DNA of 64,000 nt from Caulobacter sp. (GTDB lineage: Bacteria > Pseudomonadota > Alphaproteobacteria > Caulobacterales > Caulobacteraceae): positions 18,409 through 82,408 of the forward strand of contig JAIOXZ010000012.1 of NCBI GenBank assembly GCA_021741355.1. Direction: 5' to 3'. Position 1 is the first letter of the stretch; each line of letters opens with the position of its first letter. The position numbers and the translations under genes were made by a program. Positions 730 through 5,699 of this stretch are shown piece by piece. Below the pieces are notes generated by a model. The model saw only the letters and a program-made list of their open reading frames with translations, was not told the origin of the DNA and searched no databases.

Positions 730-1845
730 CTAGGCGAGGAAGGCGTCAGCGATCCGCTGGGCGGGCTGCAGGGGATCGACGTCGATCTGGCCGAGGTTGG
801 TCAGAACGGTGACCGCCAGCGCCTCGTCCGGCAGCATCATGACGATGGACCGGCCGCCGACAATGCTGCCGGCATGCCAGGCGCGGCGACGCCCCTGCCC
901 GTCGGTGTCGACCTCCCAGGCGATGCCGAAATTGCCGCCGCCGGGCGTCCGGGCGCGATTGACGGTGAACATCCCGGCGCGGGCCTCAGGGCCCAGATAG
1001 CCGGGCCGGGTCAGGGCGCCGCAGAATCGCACCACGTCCGGCGCCGCGCCCAGCAGGCCGCCGGCCGGCCACTTGTAGGCCGGATTGATCGGCGGACAGC
1101 GGATGATGTTGGTCAGGTCCGGATAGACCGGCTGGTAGTCGCTGACCCGGCTGGCGACCGCGGCGCCGCGCACTTCCGGCGCGATACTGGCCAGGGCGAG
1201 CGGGCGGGTGACCTCCTCCGACAGCAGGCGGGGAAAGGCCTTGCCCGTCGCGGACTCCAGAACGGCGCCGAGCAGCACATAGCCGAAGCTGGAATACCGC
1301 ATCATCTCGCCGGGAGGGGCGATCAGCGGATCGTCGATGAAGATCGCCAGCTTGTCTTCGGTGTGAAGGTAGGTGCGAGCGTCGATCGCGCCGCCGGGCG
1401 CCGCCGGGTCGACGTCCCTTGGAATGTAGTGACGGATCCCCGCCTGATGGCTGGCGAGCTGGCGCAGCGTGGTGTTCTGGTGGGCCGGCGGCAGGTCCGG
1501 GCGATAGCGGCTGATCGGCGCGTCGAGGTCGATCACCCCCTGCTCCGCCAGGCGCATGACAAGCGCGCCGGTCATCACCTTGGAGACACTGGCCAGCCGG
1601 AACCGGTCCTCGGACGTCGCCGGCAAGCGCGCCTCGAGATCGGCCATGCCGAACGCTTCGCTCCAGACCAGCCCGCCGTCGTGCCAGACCGATACGGACG
1701 CCGCGGGGAACGGCGCGCGCGCCATCAGCTCGCCTGCGACCGCCCGCGCGCGGTCAGCCGCGTCCGTCTGCGCCCGCGCCAGGCCGGGGCCGGCGAGCGT
1801 CAGGGCGGCCGGAACCGCCAGAAGGGAGCGCCTGGAGATCTTCAC
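730..1845 (-). CDS. serine hydrolase, beta-lactamase class C/AmpC-like family, Tat-exported
   Basis: SRRSLL twin-Arg signal; FRLASVSK (SxxK), YSSFGY (YxN-like) and WHAGSIVG motifs. Confidence 0.88.
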   Translation of the reverse strand: MKISRRSLLAVPAALTLAGPGLARAQTDAADRARAVAGELMARAPFPAASVSVWHDGGLVWSEAFGMADLEARLPATSEDRFRLASVSKVMTGALVMRLAEQGVIDLDAPISRYRPDLPPAHQNTTLRQLASHQAGIRHYIPRDVDPAAPGGAIDARTYLHTEDKLAIFIDDPLIAPPGEMMRYSSFGYVLLGAVLESATGKAFPRLLSEEVTRPLALASIAPEVRGAAVASRVSDYQPVYPDLTNIIRCPPINPAYKWPAGGLLGAAPDVVRFCGALTRPGYLGPEARAGMFTVNRARTPGGGNFGIAWEVDTDGQGRRRAWHAGSIVGGRSIVMMLPDEALAVTVLTNLGQIDVDPLQPAQRIADAFLA

Positions 1846-1848
1846 CGC

Positions 1849-2325
1849 CTACAGCGCGCCCTCGATCGCGGCTTTCAGCTCGGCGTCGTCCGGCGTGGTG
1901 CGCGGGCCGAACACGTTGATCAGCGACCCGTCCTTGCCGACCAGCAGCTTGTGGAAGTTCCACACCGGCTCGGCCGGCTCGCCGACCTCGGCCACCGCCC
2001 ATTTGTAGAACGGGTGCGCGCCGTCGCCCTTCACGTCGACCTTGCTGGTCATCGGGAAGTCGACGCCGAAGTTGGTGCGGCAGAATTCCTGGATGTCCGC
2101 TTCCGTGCCCGGCTCCTGCCCGGCGAACTGGTTGCAGGGCACGCCCAGCACCACCAGCCCCTGGTCGCGGTAGTCCTTGTAGAGCCGCTCCAGCCCGTCG
2201 TACTGCGGCGTCAGCCCGCAGGCGCTGGCCACATTGACCACCAGCACCACCTTGTCCCTGAAGGTCGTCATCGGCAGAGCCGAGCCGTCGATGGCGGTGA
2301 AGTCGTAGTCGTAGGCGGTGGTCAT
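1849..2325 (-). CDS. glutathione peroxidase
   Basis: VNVASACGLTPQY, GVPCNQF, WNFHK motifs; start taken at MTTAYDYDF (ATG 2325, GGAG upstream). Confidence 0.95.
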   Translation of the reverse strand: MTTAYDYDFTAIDGSALPMTTFRDKVVLVVNVASACGLTPQYDGLERLYKDYRDQGLVVLGVPCNQFAGQEPGTEADIQEFCRTNFGVDFPMTSKVDVKGDGAHPFYKWAVAEVGEPAEPVWNFHKLLVGKDGSLINVFGPRTTPDDAELKAAIEGAL

Positions 2326-2392
2326 GCGAGGGGCTCCGTGGCTCTGCGGGACTATACCCGCCCGATCACGAAGACCAATGCCCCCCAAAACC

Positions 2393-2490
2393 CCGCTCAT
2401 CCTCGCGGAAGCGAGGACCCAGGTTTACGGCAGGTGCACTCACTTCAAGGGATGCCTGGCTCCCGGACGGGACATATGCTCGGGATTGCT
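2393..2490. repeat. REP-like palindrome doublet (copy A 2393-2439 plus degenerate inverted partner 2455-2490)
   Basis: CCGCTCATCCTCGC-GGAA-GCGAGGACCCAGG hairpin; partner CCTGGCTCCCG...CGGGATTGC. Confidence 0.85.
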
Positions 2491-2514
2491 AAAAGTGGAC
2501 CTACTTCTTATAAT
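2486..2514 (+). promoter_or_regulatory. sigma70-type promoter for the GIY-YIG gene
   Basis: TTGCTA (2486-2491), 17-nt spacer, TATAAT (2509-2514), 35 nt upstream of ATG 2550. Confidence 0.7.
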
Positions 2515-2549
2515 TGTATTTCTGGCAGTCGCGCGCGCTTGAGCCCCCT

Positions 2550-2834
2550 ATGCCCTTCTACGTCTACATCCTCGCAAGCCAGCGGATCGGCACCCTCTAC
2601 ATCGGGTCCACCGACAACCTCGTGCGACGGGTCGGTGAACACCGCGAAGGGCTGATCCCGGGGTTCACCAGCCGCTACCGCGTGAAGATGCTGGTCTGGT
2701 ACGCGGTATTCGAGACCCGCGACGACGCCTTCCGCCGCGAGCGGCAGATGAAGGTCTGGCGCAGGGCCTGGAAGATCGAACTGATCGAGAAGACCAACCC
2801 CGGATGGCGGGACCTGTATCCGGAGATTTGCTGA
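2550..2834 (+). CDS. small stand-alone GIY-YIG nuclease
   Basis: MPFYVYILAS...TLYIGSTDNLVRRVGEH...FETRDDAFRRERQMKVWRRAWK; 94 aa with YVY/YIG motif and conserved R and E. Confidence 0.92.
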   Translation: MPFYVYILASQRIGTLYIGSTDNLVRRVGEHREGLIPGFTSRYRVKMLVWYAVFETRDDAFRRERQMKVWRRAWKIELIEKTNPGWRDLYPEIC

Positions 2835-2847
2835 GCGCCCAAGAAGC

Positions 2848-2977
2848 CCGCTCATCCTCGTGCAAGCAAGGACCCAGGCTTTTCGATGCAGCAGCTCGCC
2901 GCGGTGATTGGCGAACAGCGGCTGACGTGCGTGCACCGGCCGTAAACCTGGGTCCTCGCTTCCGCGAGGATGAGCGG
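2848..2977. repeat. REP-like palindrome doublet (degenerate forward copy B 2848-2883, inverted copy C 2931-2977)
   Basis: Reverse complement of 2931-2977 matches copy A at 46/47 nt. Confidence 0.9.
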
Positions 2978-3083
2978 AAAAAAGGGGGAAGTCAGCAGCC
3001 CGTCAGCTGTTCGCGTGAGGGGCAAAGGTCAGGAAGGGGCTTAAAGCGGTCCCCCTGCGAGAAGCGCAACAACCCCCTAAACT

Positions 3084-3160
3084 CCGCTCATCCTCGCGGA
3101 AGCGAGGACCCAGGTTTACGGCAGGTGCAATCACCTCAAGGCCGATGCACTCACCTCAAG
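3084..3160 (+). repeat. REP-like palindrome copy D with a short internal tandem duplication
   Basis: 3084-3130 matches copy A at 46/47 nt; followed by TCACCTCAAGG twice (from 3131 and 3151). Confidence 0.9.
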
Positions 3161-3224
3161 GAATGTGTGGCGCCAGCAGGGCCAAACCATCGATGGCGGT
3201 GAAGTCGTAGTCCGAGGCGCTCAT
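3156..3224 (-). pseudogene. 5' stub of glutathione peroxidase (MSASDYDFTAIDGLAL...stop)
   Basis: 3190-3212 is identical to 2288-2310 (23 nt); its ATG overlaps the upstream ORF stop (ATGA); the frame stops inside repeat D. Confidence 0.75.
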
Positions 3225-3703
3225 GGATGGCTCTTCAGCGGGCTCCCGCTTCGCCGGCGCAGAGACATGGGCCAAGGCTCGTCGGGGAATAGTTCAACCT
3301 TAACACCGGCGCTGGTCACGGCGACCGGACTCCAGCCCGGGCACTCGTGGGCGTTTCGTCTTGAACCAAACTTGAACACGATGAGATGCCCGGTGGGCTT
3401 GTCCGCCACCGCGTAGGCCACCCCCTCCGGATCCCCTCGGTCGCAACCGGGATACTCTTCGAGCACCGCCGCCAAGGCTTCGCCAATCCGGGAATAGACA
3501 GCCTGATCCCTCGTCGGGAGGTAGAATTTGATCGGCGTCTCGCCATCGACGGAGGCGTTCACGGCGAACAGGTCGTTCATGTTCGCAACGACGGACTCGC
3601 TGGGATACAGCGCGAGTTGCGGCTCAGACGCGCGGGCAGGCGGGGTCGCCAGGATCACGAATGCCATAATGGGAAGCGCCAACGGGCGTTGACGGCCGAC
3701 CAT
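3221..3703 (-). CDS. hypothetical protein with probable signal peptide
   Basis: ATG 1 nt after the Gfo stop; N-terminus RQRPLALPIMAFVILATPPARA; two Cys; no motif recognised. Confidence 0.55.
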   Translation of the reverse strand: MVGRQRPLALPIMAFVILATPPARASEPQLALYPSESVVANMNDLFAVNASVDGETPIKFYLPTRDQAVYSRIGEALAAVLEEYPGCDRGDPEGVAYAVADKPTGHLIVFKFGSRRNAHECPGWSPVAVTSAGVKVELFPDEPWPMSLRRRSGSPLKSHP

Positions 3704-3704
3704 G

Positions 3705-4604
3705 CTAGAACCCCGCAGCCTGCTCAACCGCCAACGCCAGGTCCAGAGCCCTCGCCGCTTCCTGGCCCGTCACCACCGGCCGTGGCGACAGCCCCCGCAC
3801 CGCCGCCACGAACCCGGCGACGCTGGTTCCCAGCGGGTCCTTGCCCGCCGGCGTCTCCGTGAACGCCTCGTTCAGCGGGAACGGGGTGCTGTTCTTGAAG
3901 GCCCGGGTGACGAAGTCGATCTCCAGGACGCCCGACGGATAGACGATCCGCATGGTCCGCTCGCGCGCCTGCGCGTTGCGGGCGGCGGTGAAGATGGCGG
4001 TGAAGCCGTCGCCGAAGATCGCCTCGGCGCGGATGTCGTTTCCGTCGCCCTCGGCCTCGACGGCCAGCGGCTCAGCGTCGGTCAGCGACAGGGCGAGATC
4101 AATGTCGTGGATCATCAGGTCGAGCACCACCGACACGTCCTTGCTGCGGATCGACGGCGTGCCTTTTCGAACGGCCTCCAGCAGCAGGGGTTTTTCCGGG
4201 ATGTCGAGCAGGCCCATGGCCTGGGACACCACCCGCTCCTGATGGCCGCAGGCCAGCACCAGACCGCCTTTGGTCGCCGCGGCGATCAGGGCGTCGGCGT
4301 CCTCCAGGGTCGTGGCCAGGGGCTTTTCGACATAGACCGACCTGCCCGCCTTCAGGCAGGCCAGGGCCGCCGCGGCATGGGTCGTGGCCGGCGAGGCAAT
4401 TGTGACGATGTCGCAGGCGGCCAGCAGGTCATCCAGATCGCCCCAAGCCTCGACTCCGTGCTGTTCGGCCATGGCGAAACAGCGCTCGGGATGGACATCA
4501 TAGATGCCGGCGAGCTGGACCCCGTCCATCTCGGCGTACTTTTTCGCGTGATAGCCGCCGAACACGCCCGACCCGACGACTCCGGCCTTGAGTACCTTTT
4601 CCAT
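3705..4604 (-). CDS. Gfo/Idh/MocA family oxidoreductase
   Basis: GVVGSGVFG Rossmann motif, YVEKPLA, DLMIHDID. Confidence 0.92.
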   Translation of the reverse strand: MEKVLKAGVVGSGVFGGYHAKKYAEMDGVQLAGIYDVHPERCFAMAEQHGVEAWGDLDDLLAACDIVTIASPATTHAAAALACLKAGRSVYVEKPLATTLEDADALIAAATKGGLVLACGHQERVVSQAMGLLDIPEKPLLLEAVRKGTPSIRSKDVSVVLDLMIHDIDLALSLTDAEPLAVEAEGDGNDIRAEAIFGDGFTAIFTAARNAQARERTMRIVYPSGVLEIDFVTRAFKNSTPFPLNEAFTETPAGKDPLGTSVAGFVAAVRGLSPRPVVTGQEAARALDLALAVEQAAGF

Positions 4605-4697
4605 GGCCCGCTTCTAGCGCGGTTCGAAGGCTTCCGCGAGACCGGCAAAGGGCCTAAACAGTCGTTTGAAATTACACCGAAAATCGGGAGACCAACC

Positions 4698-5699
4698 ATG
4701 ACCGTGTCGCGCGAGATCCGCCTCAAGAGCCGCCCCGTCGGCGTGCCGACCGCTGACAACTTCGAGCTGGCGACCGTCGAGCTGCCCGCGCCGGGCGCCG
4801 GCGAGGTCCAGGTGCGCAACACCTGGATGACCGTCGATCCCTACATGCGCGGCCGCATGAACGACGTGAAGAGCTACAGCCCGCCCTTCCAGCTGGGCAA
4901 GGTGATGGACGGCGGCGCGGTCGGCGAGGTGATCGCCTCCAATGACCCGTCGTTCACCGTCGGTGATCTGGTCCAGAGCGGCTTCGGCTGGCGCGAGGCG
5001 TTCAACGCCCCGGCCTCGGCCGTGCAGAAGCTCAACACCTTCGGCCTGCCGCCGCAGACCTTCCTCGGCATCGCCGGCATGCCGGGCATGACCGCCTGGG
5101 TCGGCCTGCTGAAGATCGCCGCACTGAAGGACGGCGACGTCGTCTTCGTGTCCGGGGCTGCCGGCGCTGTGGGTTCGGTCGTGGTGCAGATCGCCAAGAT
5201 CAAGGGCCACACGGTCATCGGCTCGGCCGGCGGCGCGGAGAAGGTCGCCTTCCTCAAGTCGATCGGCTGCGATGAGGTCATCGACTACAAGGCCGAAGCG
5301 GACCTGACCGCCGCCCTCGCCCGCGTCGCGCCCAAGGGCATCGACGTCTATTTCGAGAATGTCGGCGGCGAGCACATGGACGCGGCCATCGCCAACGCCC
5401 GCCCGTTCGCCCGCTTCGCCCTGTGCGGCATGATCAGCCAGTACAATTCGACCGGCGAGATGCACGGCACGAAGAACCTGATCCAGGCGGTCGGCAAGAG
5501 CCTGAAGCTGGAAGGCTTCATCGTCTCCAACCACTTCCAGCACATGCCCGAGTTCCTGCAGGACATGTCCGGCTGGATCAACGACGGCAAGCTGAAGTGG
5601 ACCGAGACCATCGACGAGGGCATCGAGAACGCCCCCGGCGCCTTCCTCAAGCTGTTCAAGGGCGAAAACACCGGCAAGATGCTGGTCAAGCTGAGCTGA
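4698..5699 (+). CDS. NADP-dependent oxidoreductase (MDR, prostaglandin dehydrogenase/CurA-like)
   Basis: TVDPYMRGRM, GMPGMTAWVGL, VSGAAGAVGS, YFENVGG, NTGKMLV. Confidence 0.92.
   Translation: MTVSREIRLKSRPVGVPTADNFELATVELPAPGAGEVQVRNTWMTVDPYMRGRMNDVKSYSPPFQLGKVMDGGAVGEVIASNDPSFTVGDLVQSGFGWREAFNAPASAVQKLNTFGLPPQTFLGIAGMPGMTAWVGLLKIAALKDGDVVFVSGAAGAVGSVVVQIAKIKGHTVIGSAGGAEKVAFLKSIGCDEVIDYKAEADLTAALARVAPKGIDVYFENVGGEHMDAAIANARPFARFALCGMISQYNSTGEMHGTKNLIQAVGKSLKLEGFIVSNHFQHMPEFLQDMSGWINDGKLKWTETIDEGIENAPGAFLKLFKGENTGKMLVKLS

Follow-up and report, generated by a model that had tools for sequence, protein, structure and literature searches.

An orphaned gpx gene start between Gfo and gpx in Caulobacter: probable scar of recombination between two haplotypes of a variable slot

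The glutathione peroxidase gene (gpx) considered here lies in a 64,000-nt stretch of DNA from an uncultured Caulobacter sp. (contig JAIOXZ010000012.1, assembly GCA_021741355.1, positions 18,409 to 82,408), which is the whole stretch analysed and is referred to below as the window. Between gpx and the Gfo/Idh/MocA oxidoreductase gene upstream of it (Gfo) are found a short second gpx 5' end (the stub), an open reading frame (ORF) named orf160, a GIY-YIG nuclease gene, and four copies of one repeat of the repetitive extragenic palindromic (REP) type, i.e. A, B (degenerate), C (inverted), and D; all relevant genes except the GIY-YIG gene are on the minus strand. We propose that the stub is the scar of recombination between two natural haplotypes of this locus, and we assign to this reading a probability of about 0.6. 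In this species group of Caulobacter the content of the Gfo-gpx interval, here called the slot, is hypervariable; on the reading proposed, the stub is a recombination scar of an ordinary kind, and what is unusual is how variable its slot is. A preliminary description of the same DNA had attributed the stub to an integrase-free GIY-YIG/REP element of ~900 bp that entered gpx at a 23-bp core, carrying a promoter and a substitute 5' end; its observations on the repeated 23-mer, the stub, and the different start of the intact gene were accurate, and its model is very unlikely in view of the comparisons with relatives reported below.

Two gpx allele classes at the Gfo-gpx slot

The stub is located ~900 bases upstream of the intact gpx; its ORF has 22 codons (3156-3224, minus strand, MSASDYDFTAIDGLALLAPHIP*), with the stop codon (3156-3158) inside REP D. 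Its first nine bases, ATGAGCGCC, together with an N-terminus shorter by one codon, are the signature of a minority allele class among the gpx relatives (class I; MSAYDY(D/A)FTAIDG, 157 aa), represented by P0045, P0053, and P0055. Two strains with an empty slot (L100 and L101) carry an intact class I gpx located 12 and 10 nt after the Gfo stop, respectively, which begins with ATGAGCGCCTA(C/T) (MSAY) as the stub does; the stub start ATGAGCGCCT... is common to both. A manual count over 51 positions gives 6 substitutions between the stub and L101 and 7 between the stub and L100, without any indel, while alignment of the stub with the window's own intact start, MTTAYDYDFTAIDG (MTTAYDYDF), requires a 3-nt indel and ~8 substitutions. 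The class I signature without an indel thus points to a genuine former gpx start of the operon-coupled type, which the stub most probably is and which the preliminary description had already suspected. Relative to the class I empty-slot haplotype, the DNA between the stub and the intact gpx is extra. The stub ATG overlaps the TGA of orf160 as ATGA; this overlap is weak evidence for evolved coupling, because every gpx allele here begins with ATGA and any ORF entering in that overlapping frame stops there. L100 and L101, in which Gfo is followed after 10-12 nt by an MSAY-type gpx, come close to the empty site that had been predicted from the window, and a site with both orf160 and an intact gpx was not found in metagenome contigs or among 5.8e9 proteins.

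A second gpx 5' copy is absent at every other locus compared, the stub occurring only in the window lineage, and the orf160-stub-REP D segment is likewise confined to that lineage among the loci compared. The segment up to the REP D tail, including the ATGA overlap, is independently reproduced in Logan contigs (L082, L083) from two lake-water runs, which extend over 3115-4868 (run X1) and 3100-4139 (run X2) with 0 differences from the window. A ~97% relative in run X3 has in its intact gpx (contig over 2088-2346) a G at 2278 and an A at 2284, two of the four states that separate the stub from the window's intact copy over 2274-2290; the states common to the X3 gene and the stub may represent shared polymorphism or conversion between copies. 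In shuffle-controlled local alignment the 76 nt upstream of the stub ATG were not significantly similar to any of the leaders or to any Gfo 3' end (p 0.07-0.64), and a candidate class II leader remnant at 20-45 nt upstream (blastn, MAFFT) was dropped for the same p values against shuffles. Only 12 nt, GAAGAGCCATCC, resemble L101 GGAGAGCGAC, a length too short for testing.

The 23-mer TCGATGGCGGTGAAGTCGTAGTC is present in exactly two copies in the window (Table 1), with no additional match at up to 3 mismatches and 0 matches in 100 shuffles; the similarity around the pair comprises 44 nt at 86% identity (2274-2317 vs 3176-3219). In the leader/start alignment the 23-mer is near-invariant gpx coding sequence in all close relatives, so that the exact identity reflects the conservation of two gpx alleles, and an element-made target duplication or an attachment (att) core was ruled out on that basis. 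A 23-bp "direct repeat" can therefore be mere conserved coding sequence of two alleles.

The second allele class (class II), to which the window's intact gpx belongs, is the usual one in occupied slots. All occupied-slot haplotypes whose Gfo is at least 90% identical start with ATGACCACCGCCTACGACTACG (MTTAY) behind a GGAGCC-type leader, whatever the slot contains; the MTTAY start is present in L084, L085, L087, L097, and L098, and L002, which carries a REP doublet, has MSTAY. MTTAYDYDF is the commonest start in the database (25 of 119 gpx relatives), and the related starts MTNAW, MSNAY, and MTTAH dominate among the 119. MTTAY/MSNAY-type starts are the common form across Caulobacteraceae, and from their dominance among relatives we take this form to be the ancestral one. 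The start and the leader also occur in L085/L086, L097, and L098/L099, which have neither cassette nor REP; for example, window positions 2362-2204 are 91% identical to L085 2910-3070, where there is no GIY gene and no REP. The cassette consequently did not supply the promoter and 5' end of gpx, and the MTTAY start without the cassette is the very observation that the preliminary description had in advance set against its own model.

Gfo-gpx regions were gathered by genome scan, from the members of the 90% Gfo cluster, and from gpx homologues, and Gfo and gpx are adjacent in every relative. The slot, extending from the Gfo stop to a point ~20-40 nt short of the gpx ATG, has a different content in almost all lineages: an 85-aa ORF plus the GIY unit in L084, a 192-aa ORFan (ORF192) in L085/L086, two ORFans (orf119 and orf157) plus the GIY unit in L087/L088, a 128-aa ORF (orf128) in L097, a glutathione S-transferase (GST) gene in L098/L099, and a PNPOx-family gene plus the REP doublet in L002, with L005, L100, and L101 being empty (45, 12, and 10 nt). 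Close Caulobacter strains thus have at least 8 different contents between conserved flanks. The contents differ even among the strains whose Gfo is at least 90% identical (L084 to L088 and L097 to L099). In the pair L084 and L085 the flanks are 95.7% (Gfo) and 95.9% (gpx-blaC, blaC being the beta-lactamase-fold gene downstream of gpx) identical and the slot is without any homology, which ends exactly at the Gfo stop codon and restarts 40 nt before the gpx ATG. Neither PADLOC nor Pfam gave a function for the slot ORFans.

In the window the slot begins with orf160, whose ATG is separated by 1 nt from the Gfo stop (TAG) and whose 3' end overlaps the stub by 4 nt. Its N-terminus is signal-peptide-like (MVGRQRPLALPIMAFVILATPPARA), and its GC content at third codon positions is 0.75 vs 0.87-0.96 in the neighbours. 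No match was found in Pfam, NCBIfam, or PADLOC; no relative was found among 5.8e9 proteins except orf160 itself, and none in metagenome contigs. Exact look-up of the 160-aa product gave no match, look-up of a 148-aa form gave only same-strain Logan contigs ending at REP D, and a degenerate DNA pattern for MSASDYDFTAIDG gave 0 matches in metagenome contigs. The only carriers found are this strain and, in run X3, the ~97% relative, in which the contig (~7x depth) goes no further than 3214. The lack of relatives and the low third-position GC fit the entry of foreign DNA after the Gfo stop and before the gpx ATG, and orf160 appears to be a foreign ORFan wedged in at that point; its product may be a secreted protein, either of recent acquisition or arisen de novo.

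The junction between stub and REP D

Two haplotypes would have taken part in the proposed recombination, one of the MSAY type bearing orf160 and one of the MTTAY type bearing the GIY unit. Class I, as seen in relatives, has an empty slot and a gpx that starts with ATGAGCGCC (MSAY, 157 aa) 10-12 nt after the Gfo stop; class II has an occupied slot and a gpx with its own leader (GGAGCC, usually with a TATAGT-like box) and the start ATGACCACCGCC (MTTAY). The left part of the window would be derived from Gfo, orf160, and the first 17 codons of a class I gpx, and the right part from an ordinary class II haplotype of the L087/L084 type, in the order REP D, flank, REP C, GIY-YIG gene, REP A, leader, and gpx. 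The two parts would have been joined illegitimately, gpx codon 17/18 to the REP D tail, and the other crossover would have been homologous; its place would follow from the donor haplotype and could be in gpx, beyond gpx on its downstream side, or in Gfo. The stub would then be the orphaned end left by the recombination, drifted since. Apart from its internal duplication, REP D can be aligned as far as ~3174 with the left REPs of all units, and gpx homology starts at 3176, which places the break at gpx codon 17/18 against the REP tail. Parsimony favours the cassette side as the resident one, since cassette, flank, and leader are common to three lineages. That the recombination was one-sided, and its direction, we infer from the present-day sequences. 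A homologous crossover paired with an illegitimate one is the product expected from homology-facilitated illegitimate recombination (HFIR); homology-anchored illegitimate recombination has been defined (PMC3240628), and the process has been proposed for orphaned gene pieces at type VI secretion system (T6SS) and Rhs loci (PMC5361080).

Several observations weigh against this reading. No more than 1-3 nt of microhomology is present at the junction. The parental haplotype, Gfo-orf160-intact gpx, was not found in metagenome contigs or among the 5.8e9 proteins. Sliding-window identity revealed no clear breakpoint in Gfo or gpx, and the window Gfo is not nearer to the class I strains. The stub is 6-7 changes away from the known class I alleles, and either its source allele is unsampled or the stub has decayed. 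Finally, the window GIY gene is nearer to paralogues at a helicase locus than to the gpx-locus copies of L084 and L087, so that strict orthology of the cassette is not certain.

A local tandem duplication, e.g. between the direct REPs A and D, followed by deletion and drift of the upstream copy, would also leave a truncated gpx start. The two REPs (89% identical over 81 nt) could mediate unequal exchange, and four differences of the stub from the consensus are C to T (manual count), fitting neutral decay. This origin is nevertheless unlikely: the stub bears the class I signature of independent intact alleles and not that of the resident class II start, two gpx copies are present in no relative examined, at least two extra steps are needed, and a perfect 23-nt block within ~30% divergence is unlike uniform decay.

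The junction might also be an assembly artefact, the contig of this metagenome-assembled genome (MAG) having been mis-joined through identical REP cores so that stub and cassette are not adjacent. The Logan contigs of X1 and X2 break at REPs, and none of them bridges REP C and REP D; a joint that skips the whole cassette was found in none of the contigs of runs X1-X5. An artefact is still very improbable, as Gfo-orf160-stub-REP D and REP A-leader-gpx-blaC are each contained in independent contigs of similar depth (~21-29x in X1), the REP A-leader-gpx junction being recovered in Logan contig L001 as well; Gfo and gpx are neighbours in all relatives, the REP C flank to 3053 is seen in X3 and is common to L087, and the stub itself is in unique sequence.

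Table 1. Features of the window around the Gfo-gpx slot
Feature	Position	Strand	Remarks
Beta-lactamase-fold gene (blaC), downstream of gpx	730-1845	-	
Intact gpx, 158 aa, MTTAY-type (class II) start	1849-2325	-	Start ATGACCACCGCCTAC; Pfam GSHPx 3.6e-38
Proximal 23-mer copy	2288-2310		Codons 6-13 of intact gpx
Native gpx leader	2326-2362	-	GGAG 2334-2337; TATAGT -10-like box 2351-2356
REP A, head-outward left end of GIY-YIG unit	2357-2459	+	Boundary from paralogous locus, alignments starting 2357-2382
Promoter-like site of GIY-YIG gene	2486-2514	+	TTGCTA, 17 nt, TATAAT
GIY-YIG nuclease gene, 94 aa, single-domain	2550-2834	+	Pfam GIY-YIG PF01541 1.4e-15, residues 3-76
REP B, degenerate copy	2835-2881	+	
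REP C, inverted right end of GIY-YIG unit	2923-2988	-	95% complementary to REP A over 55 nt
Flank outside REP C	2989-3060		Common to L087, partly to L084
REP D, solo REP, tail adjoining stub	3061-3175	+	
Illegitimate junction (as proposed), REP D tail / gpx codon 17/18	3174-3176		Read from alignments
gpx stub, first 16-17 codons of MSAY-type (class I) allele, 49 bases	3176-3224	-	
Distal 23-mer copy	3190-3212		
orf160	3221-3703	-	ORF listed as 3221-3703/3727
Gfo/Idh/MocA oxidoreductase gene	3705-4604	-	Conserved left border of variable slot

The GIY-YIG unit and its REP repeats

The core of REP A, CCGCTCATCCTCGCGGAAGCGAGGACCCAGG, has a 7-bp stem and a GGAA loop, and REP D contains an internal 20-nt tandem duplication (3120-3141 / 3140-3161, GGCAGGTGCAATCACCTCAAGG / GGCCGATGCACTCACCTCAAGG) in whose second copy the stop codon of the stub is located. 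All 4 REPs inside the window are at this single locus, and the REP family is high-copy in these lake metagenomes, the depth of REP core words at 2392-2420 and 3085-3115 being ~40x (X1) to ~100x (X2) that of single-copy flanks. REP C and REP D form a head-to-head pair (2927-3154; arms of 66 nt, 88% complementary, separated by 84 nt), and the Rfam matches obtained there (MIR8670 with 71 bits vs a gathering threshold of 150, Dictyoglomi-1, and MIR1437) were set aside as sub-threshold, long-hairpin artefacts of this pair. We also rejected the idea that REP D is the truncated left end of a second GIY unit, since its "spacer-like" tail is found in right-end REPs too (window 2388-2459 vs L090 3360-3289).

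The 90% cluster of the GIY-YIG protein has 47 members, including two loci in one MAG, and at least two GIY units are present in MAG GCA_030645575. In several strains, one of them the MAG of L084, a paralogous GIY gene (90-93% aa identity) adjoins a DinG-like helicase gene. The stretch of the window that is homologous to the helicase locus begins at 2357/2382 and ends at 2839, with REP C in addition, or at 2978 in the case of L089; these limits define a multi-copy unit of ~600 nt, i.e. REP-promoter-GIY-YIG-(REP B)-inverted REP, at ~2357/2380-2988. Beyond its limits lie the gpx leader and start on one side and REP D and the stub on the other, and the helicase-locus unit (L089 2835-3428, L090 2835-3376, L094 1064-1628) contains no gpx sequence. 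The ~900-bp cassette of the preliminary description is accordingly reduced to this shorter unit, and the 23-mers are not at its ends: they are separated from them by ~50-70 nt and ~200 nt. Inverted REPs flank the GIY-YIG gene in the window, L084, L087, and L089-L094, and L095/L096 have the same layout with contigs ending inside the left REP. The TATAAT box is kept in the other units except L090/L094 (TAAGAT). REP B is absent from L090-type units, and X2 and X3 contigs skip it as well, joining 2839 to 2926 through 13 other letters (AGACATCCCCAAC and variants); these contigs are shorter L090-type GIY units, which are abundant in the samples (depth ~130 vs 40).

At the gpx locus itself, collinear alignments were obtained with L084 over window 2992-2201 (84%, 807 nt) and with L087 over window 3051-2201 (82%, 864 nt). 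The collinearity covers the unit, 40-75 nt of flank outside REP C, the leader, and gpx, and there is no stub in either strain. The window GIY gene (2550-2834) is nearer to the helicase-locus paralogues of L089/L090 (3001-3285; 92% nt, with RYRVKMLVWY in common) than to the gpx-locus copies of L084 (7378-7662) and L087 (8203-8487), to which it is 89% identical and which are 94% identical to each other; this pattern suggests gene conversion or exchange between paralogous units.

The proposal that the unit entered gpx and repaired it would, if correct, make it a new kind of minimal mobile element repairing its target. In its favour are the stub as a real former start, the additional DNA that separates this start from an intact gene with a leader of its own, and the GIY unit, which some close strains have and others lack and which is found at more than one locus; the likeness of the window GIY copy to the helicase-locus paralogues could even mean a separate arrival. 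Its very low probability follows from the limits of the unit and from the relatives taken together. The MTTAY start and leader are a common Caulobacteraceae form that occurs without cassette or REP (L085/86, L097, L098/99), the helicase-locus unit has no gpx sequence, the same unit with leader and gpx is in the same place in L084 and L087 without a stub, and the 23-mer is conserved coding sequence ~50-70 and ~200 nt beyond the unit ends. A duplicated gene start, which the preliminary description had suggested looking for at other GIY-YIG/REP cassettes, was found at 0 of the 9 other haplotype loci examined.

The nuclease could have had a less direct role. A cut of a cassette-less class I allele near gpx codon 17, made by the GIY-YIG protein or by another nuclease, could have been repaired in a one-ended manner, the downstream end copying a cassette-bearing allele through the gpx 5' end, the leader, and the unit, and the new strand then being end-joined upstream with duplication of the gene start, which would amount to an imperfect, intron-less homing event. 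The unit does encode a GIY-YIG catalytic domain and is present or absent between conserved genes in the near-identical L084 and L085, the adjacent gpx of these two strains is 93.7% identical in amino acids vs 97-99.7% in flanking genes, which resembles co-conversion, and the duplication ends sharply within highly conserved sequence. We regard this course as speculative and rather improbable, with cleavage purely hypothetical: the 94-aa protein consists of the catalytic domain only and has no recognisable DNA-binding module for a long target, the unit is invariably associated with REPs and not with gpx, and no other unit examined has a stub. A related and equally doubtful idea is that the 94-aa GIY-YIG protein is the nuclease partner of the REP family, similar in role to the REP-associated tyrosine transposases (RAYTs) with a different fold, and that the stub is a by-product of its break, repaired one-endedly from a cassette-bearing allele; the break would be located in the gpx 5' end or a REP tail, or close to one of these, and if such a partnership is real, REP/GIY units would actively drive the turnover of modules at the Gfo-gpx slot.

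Full-text literature searches yielded no paper describing a GIY-YIG nuclease associated with REPs or with transposable elements of the miniature inverted-repeat type (MITEs) in bacteria. The REP-bounded GIY-YIG unit, to which this locus draws attention and which was not found described in the literature searched, is a more interesting object than the stub and a separate finding.

Downstream of gpx, the blaC-type gene encodes a protein ~71% identical to the L084, L085, and L087 copies, and in the same comparisons ADH, Gfo, and gpx have 87-95% protein identity. The L087 copy is ~73% identical to those of L084 and L085, so at least three deeply divergent alleles of the beta-lactamase-fold gene are at the syntenic position, and this locus looks like a second recombination hot spot.

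Comparison with known systems

If the stub is a recombination scar, as we favour, it is a clean and datable one that shows module swapping in a strain-variable slot of a free-living Caulobacter, and the at least 8 haplotypes form a natural series for the study of slot turnover. Free-standing GIY-YIG homing endonuclease genes (phage T4 Seg-type) resemble the GIY-YIG gene of the window in lying between conserved genes, in being present or absent in close strains, and in the reduced identity of an adjacent gene; the putative nuclease described here differs from them in that it has no DNA-binding extension (the domain fills residues 3-76 of 94 aa), is chromosomal and not phage-borne, and is bounded by REPs. 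In REP/REPIN-RAYT systems a high-copy hairpin repeat is likewise found inverted around a small nuclease gene, and gene-less REP doublets such as that of L002 exist, but the nuclease in the present case is GIY-YIG (the sole Pfam match) and not Y1/HUH, and at least two copies occur per genome.

Gene-targeting integrative elements (att islands, prophages) also leave a displaced gene-end stub, an intact gene, and a short identity block on both sides. In the window, however, the DNA between the stub and gpx contains a single gene, which encodes the 94-aa GIY-YIG protein, and an integrase domain was not detected. The identity block lies away from the ends of the unit; moreover, the substitute end is an ordinary allele found without the element, and the helicase-locus copy has no gpx sequence.

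The nearest comparison is with HFIR, or sequential displacement, at T6SS effector-immunity arrays and at the orphan ends of Rhs and contact-dependent inhibition (CDI) loci. The orphan of the Gfo-gpx slot differs in being a 17-codon 5' gene start and not a 3' toxin end with an immunity gene. Neither competition nor a toxin plays a part here, the mechanism is read from its product, and the process was shown in species other than Caulobacter. Both have a conserved anchor on one side and, as proposed for the window, a non-homologous join on the other; in both, alternative modules occupy a single slot between conserved genes, and an orphaned fragment of a conserved neighbour gene remains (PMC3240628, PMC5361080).

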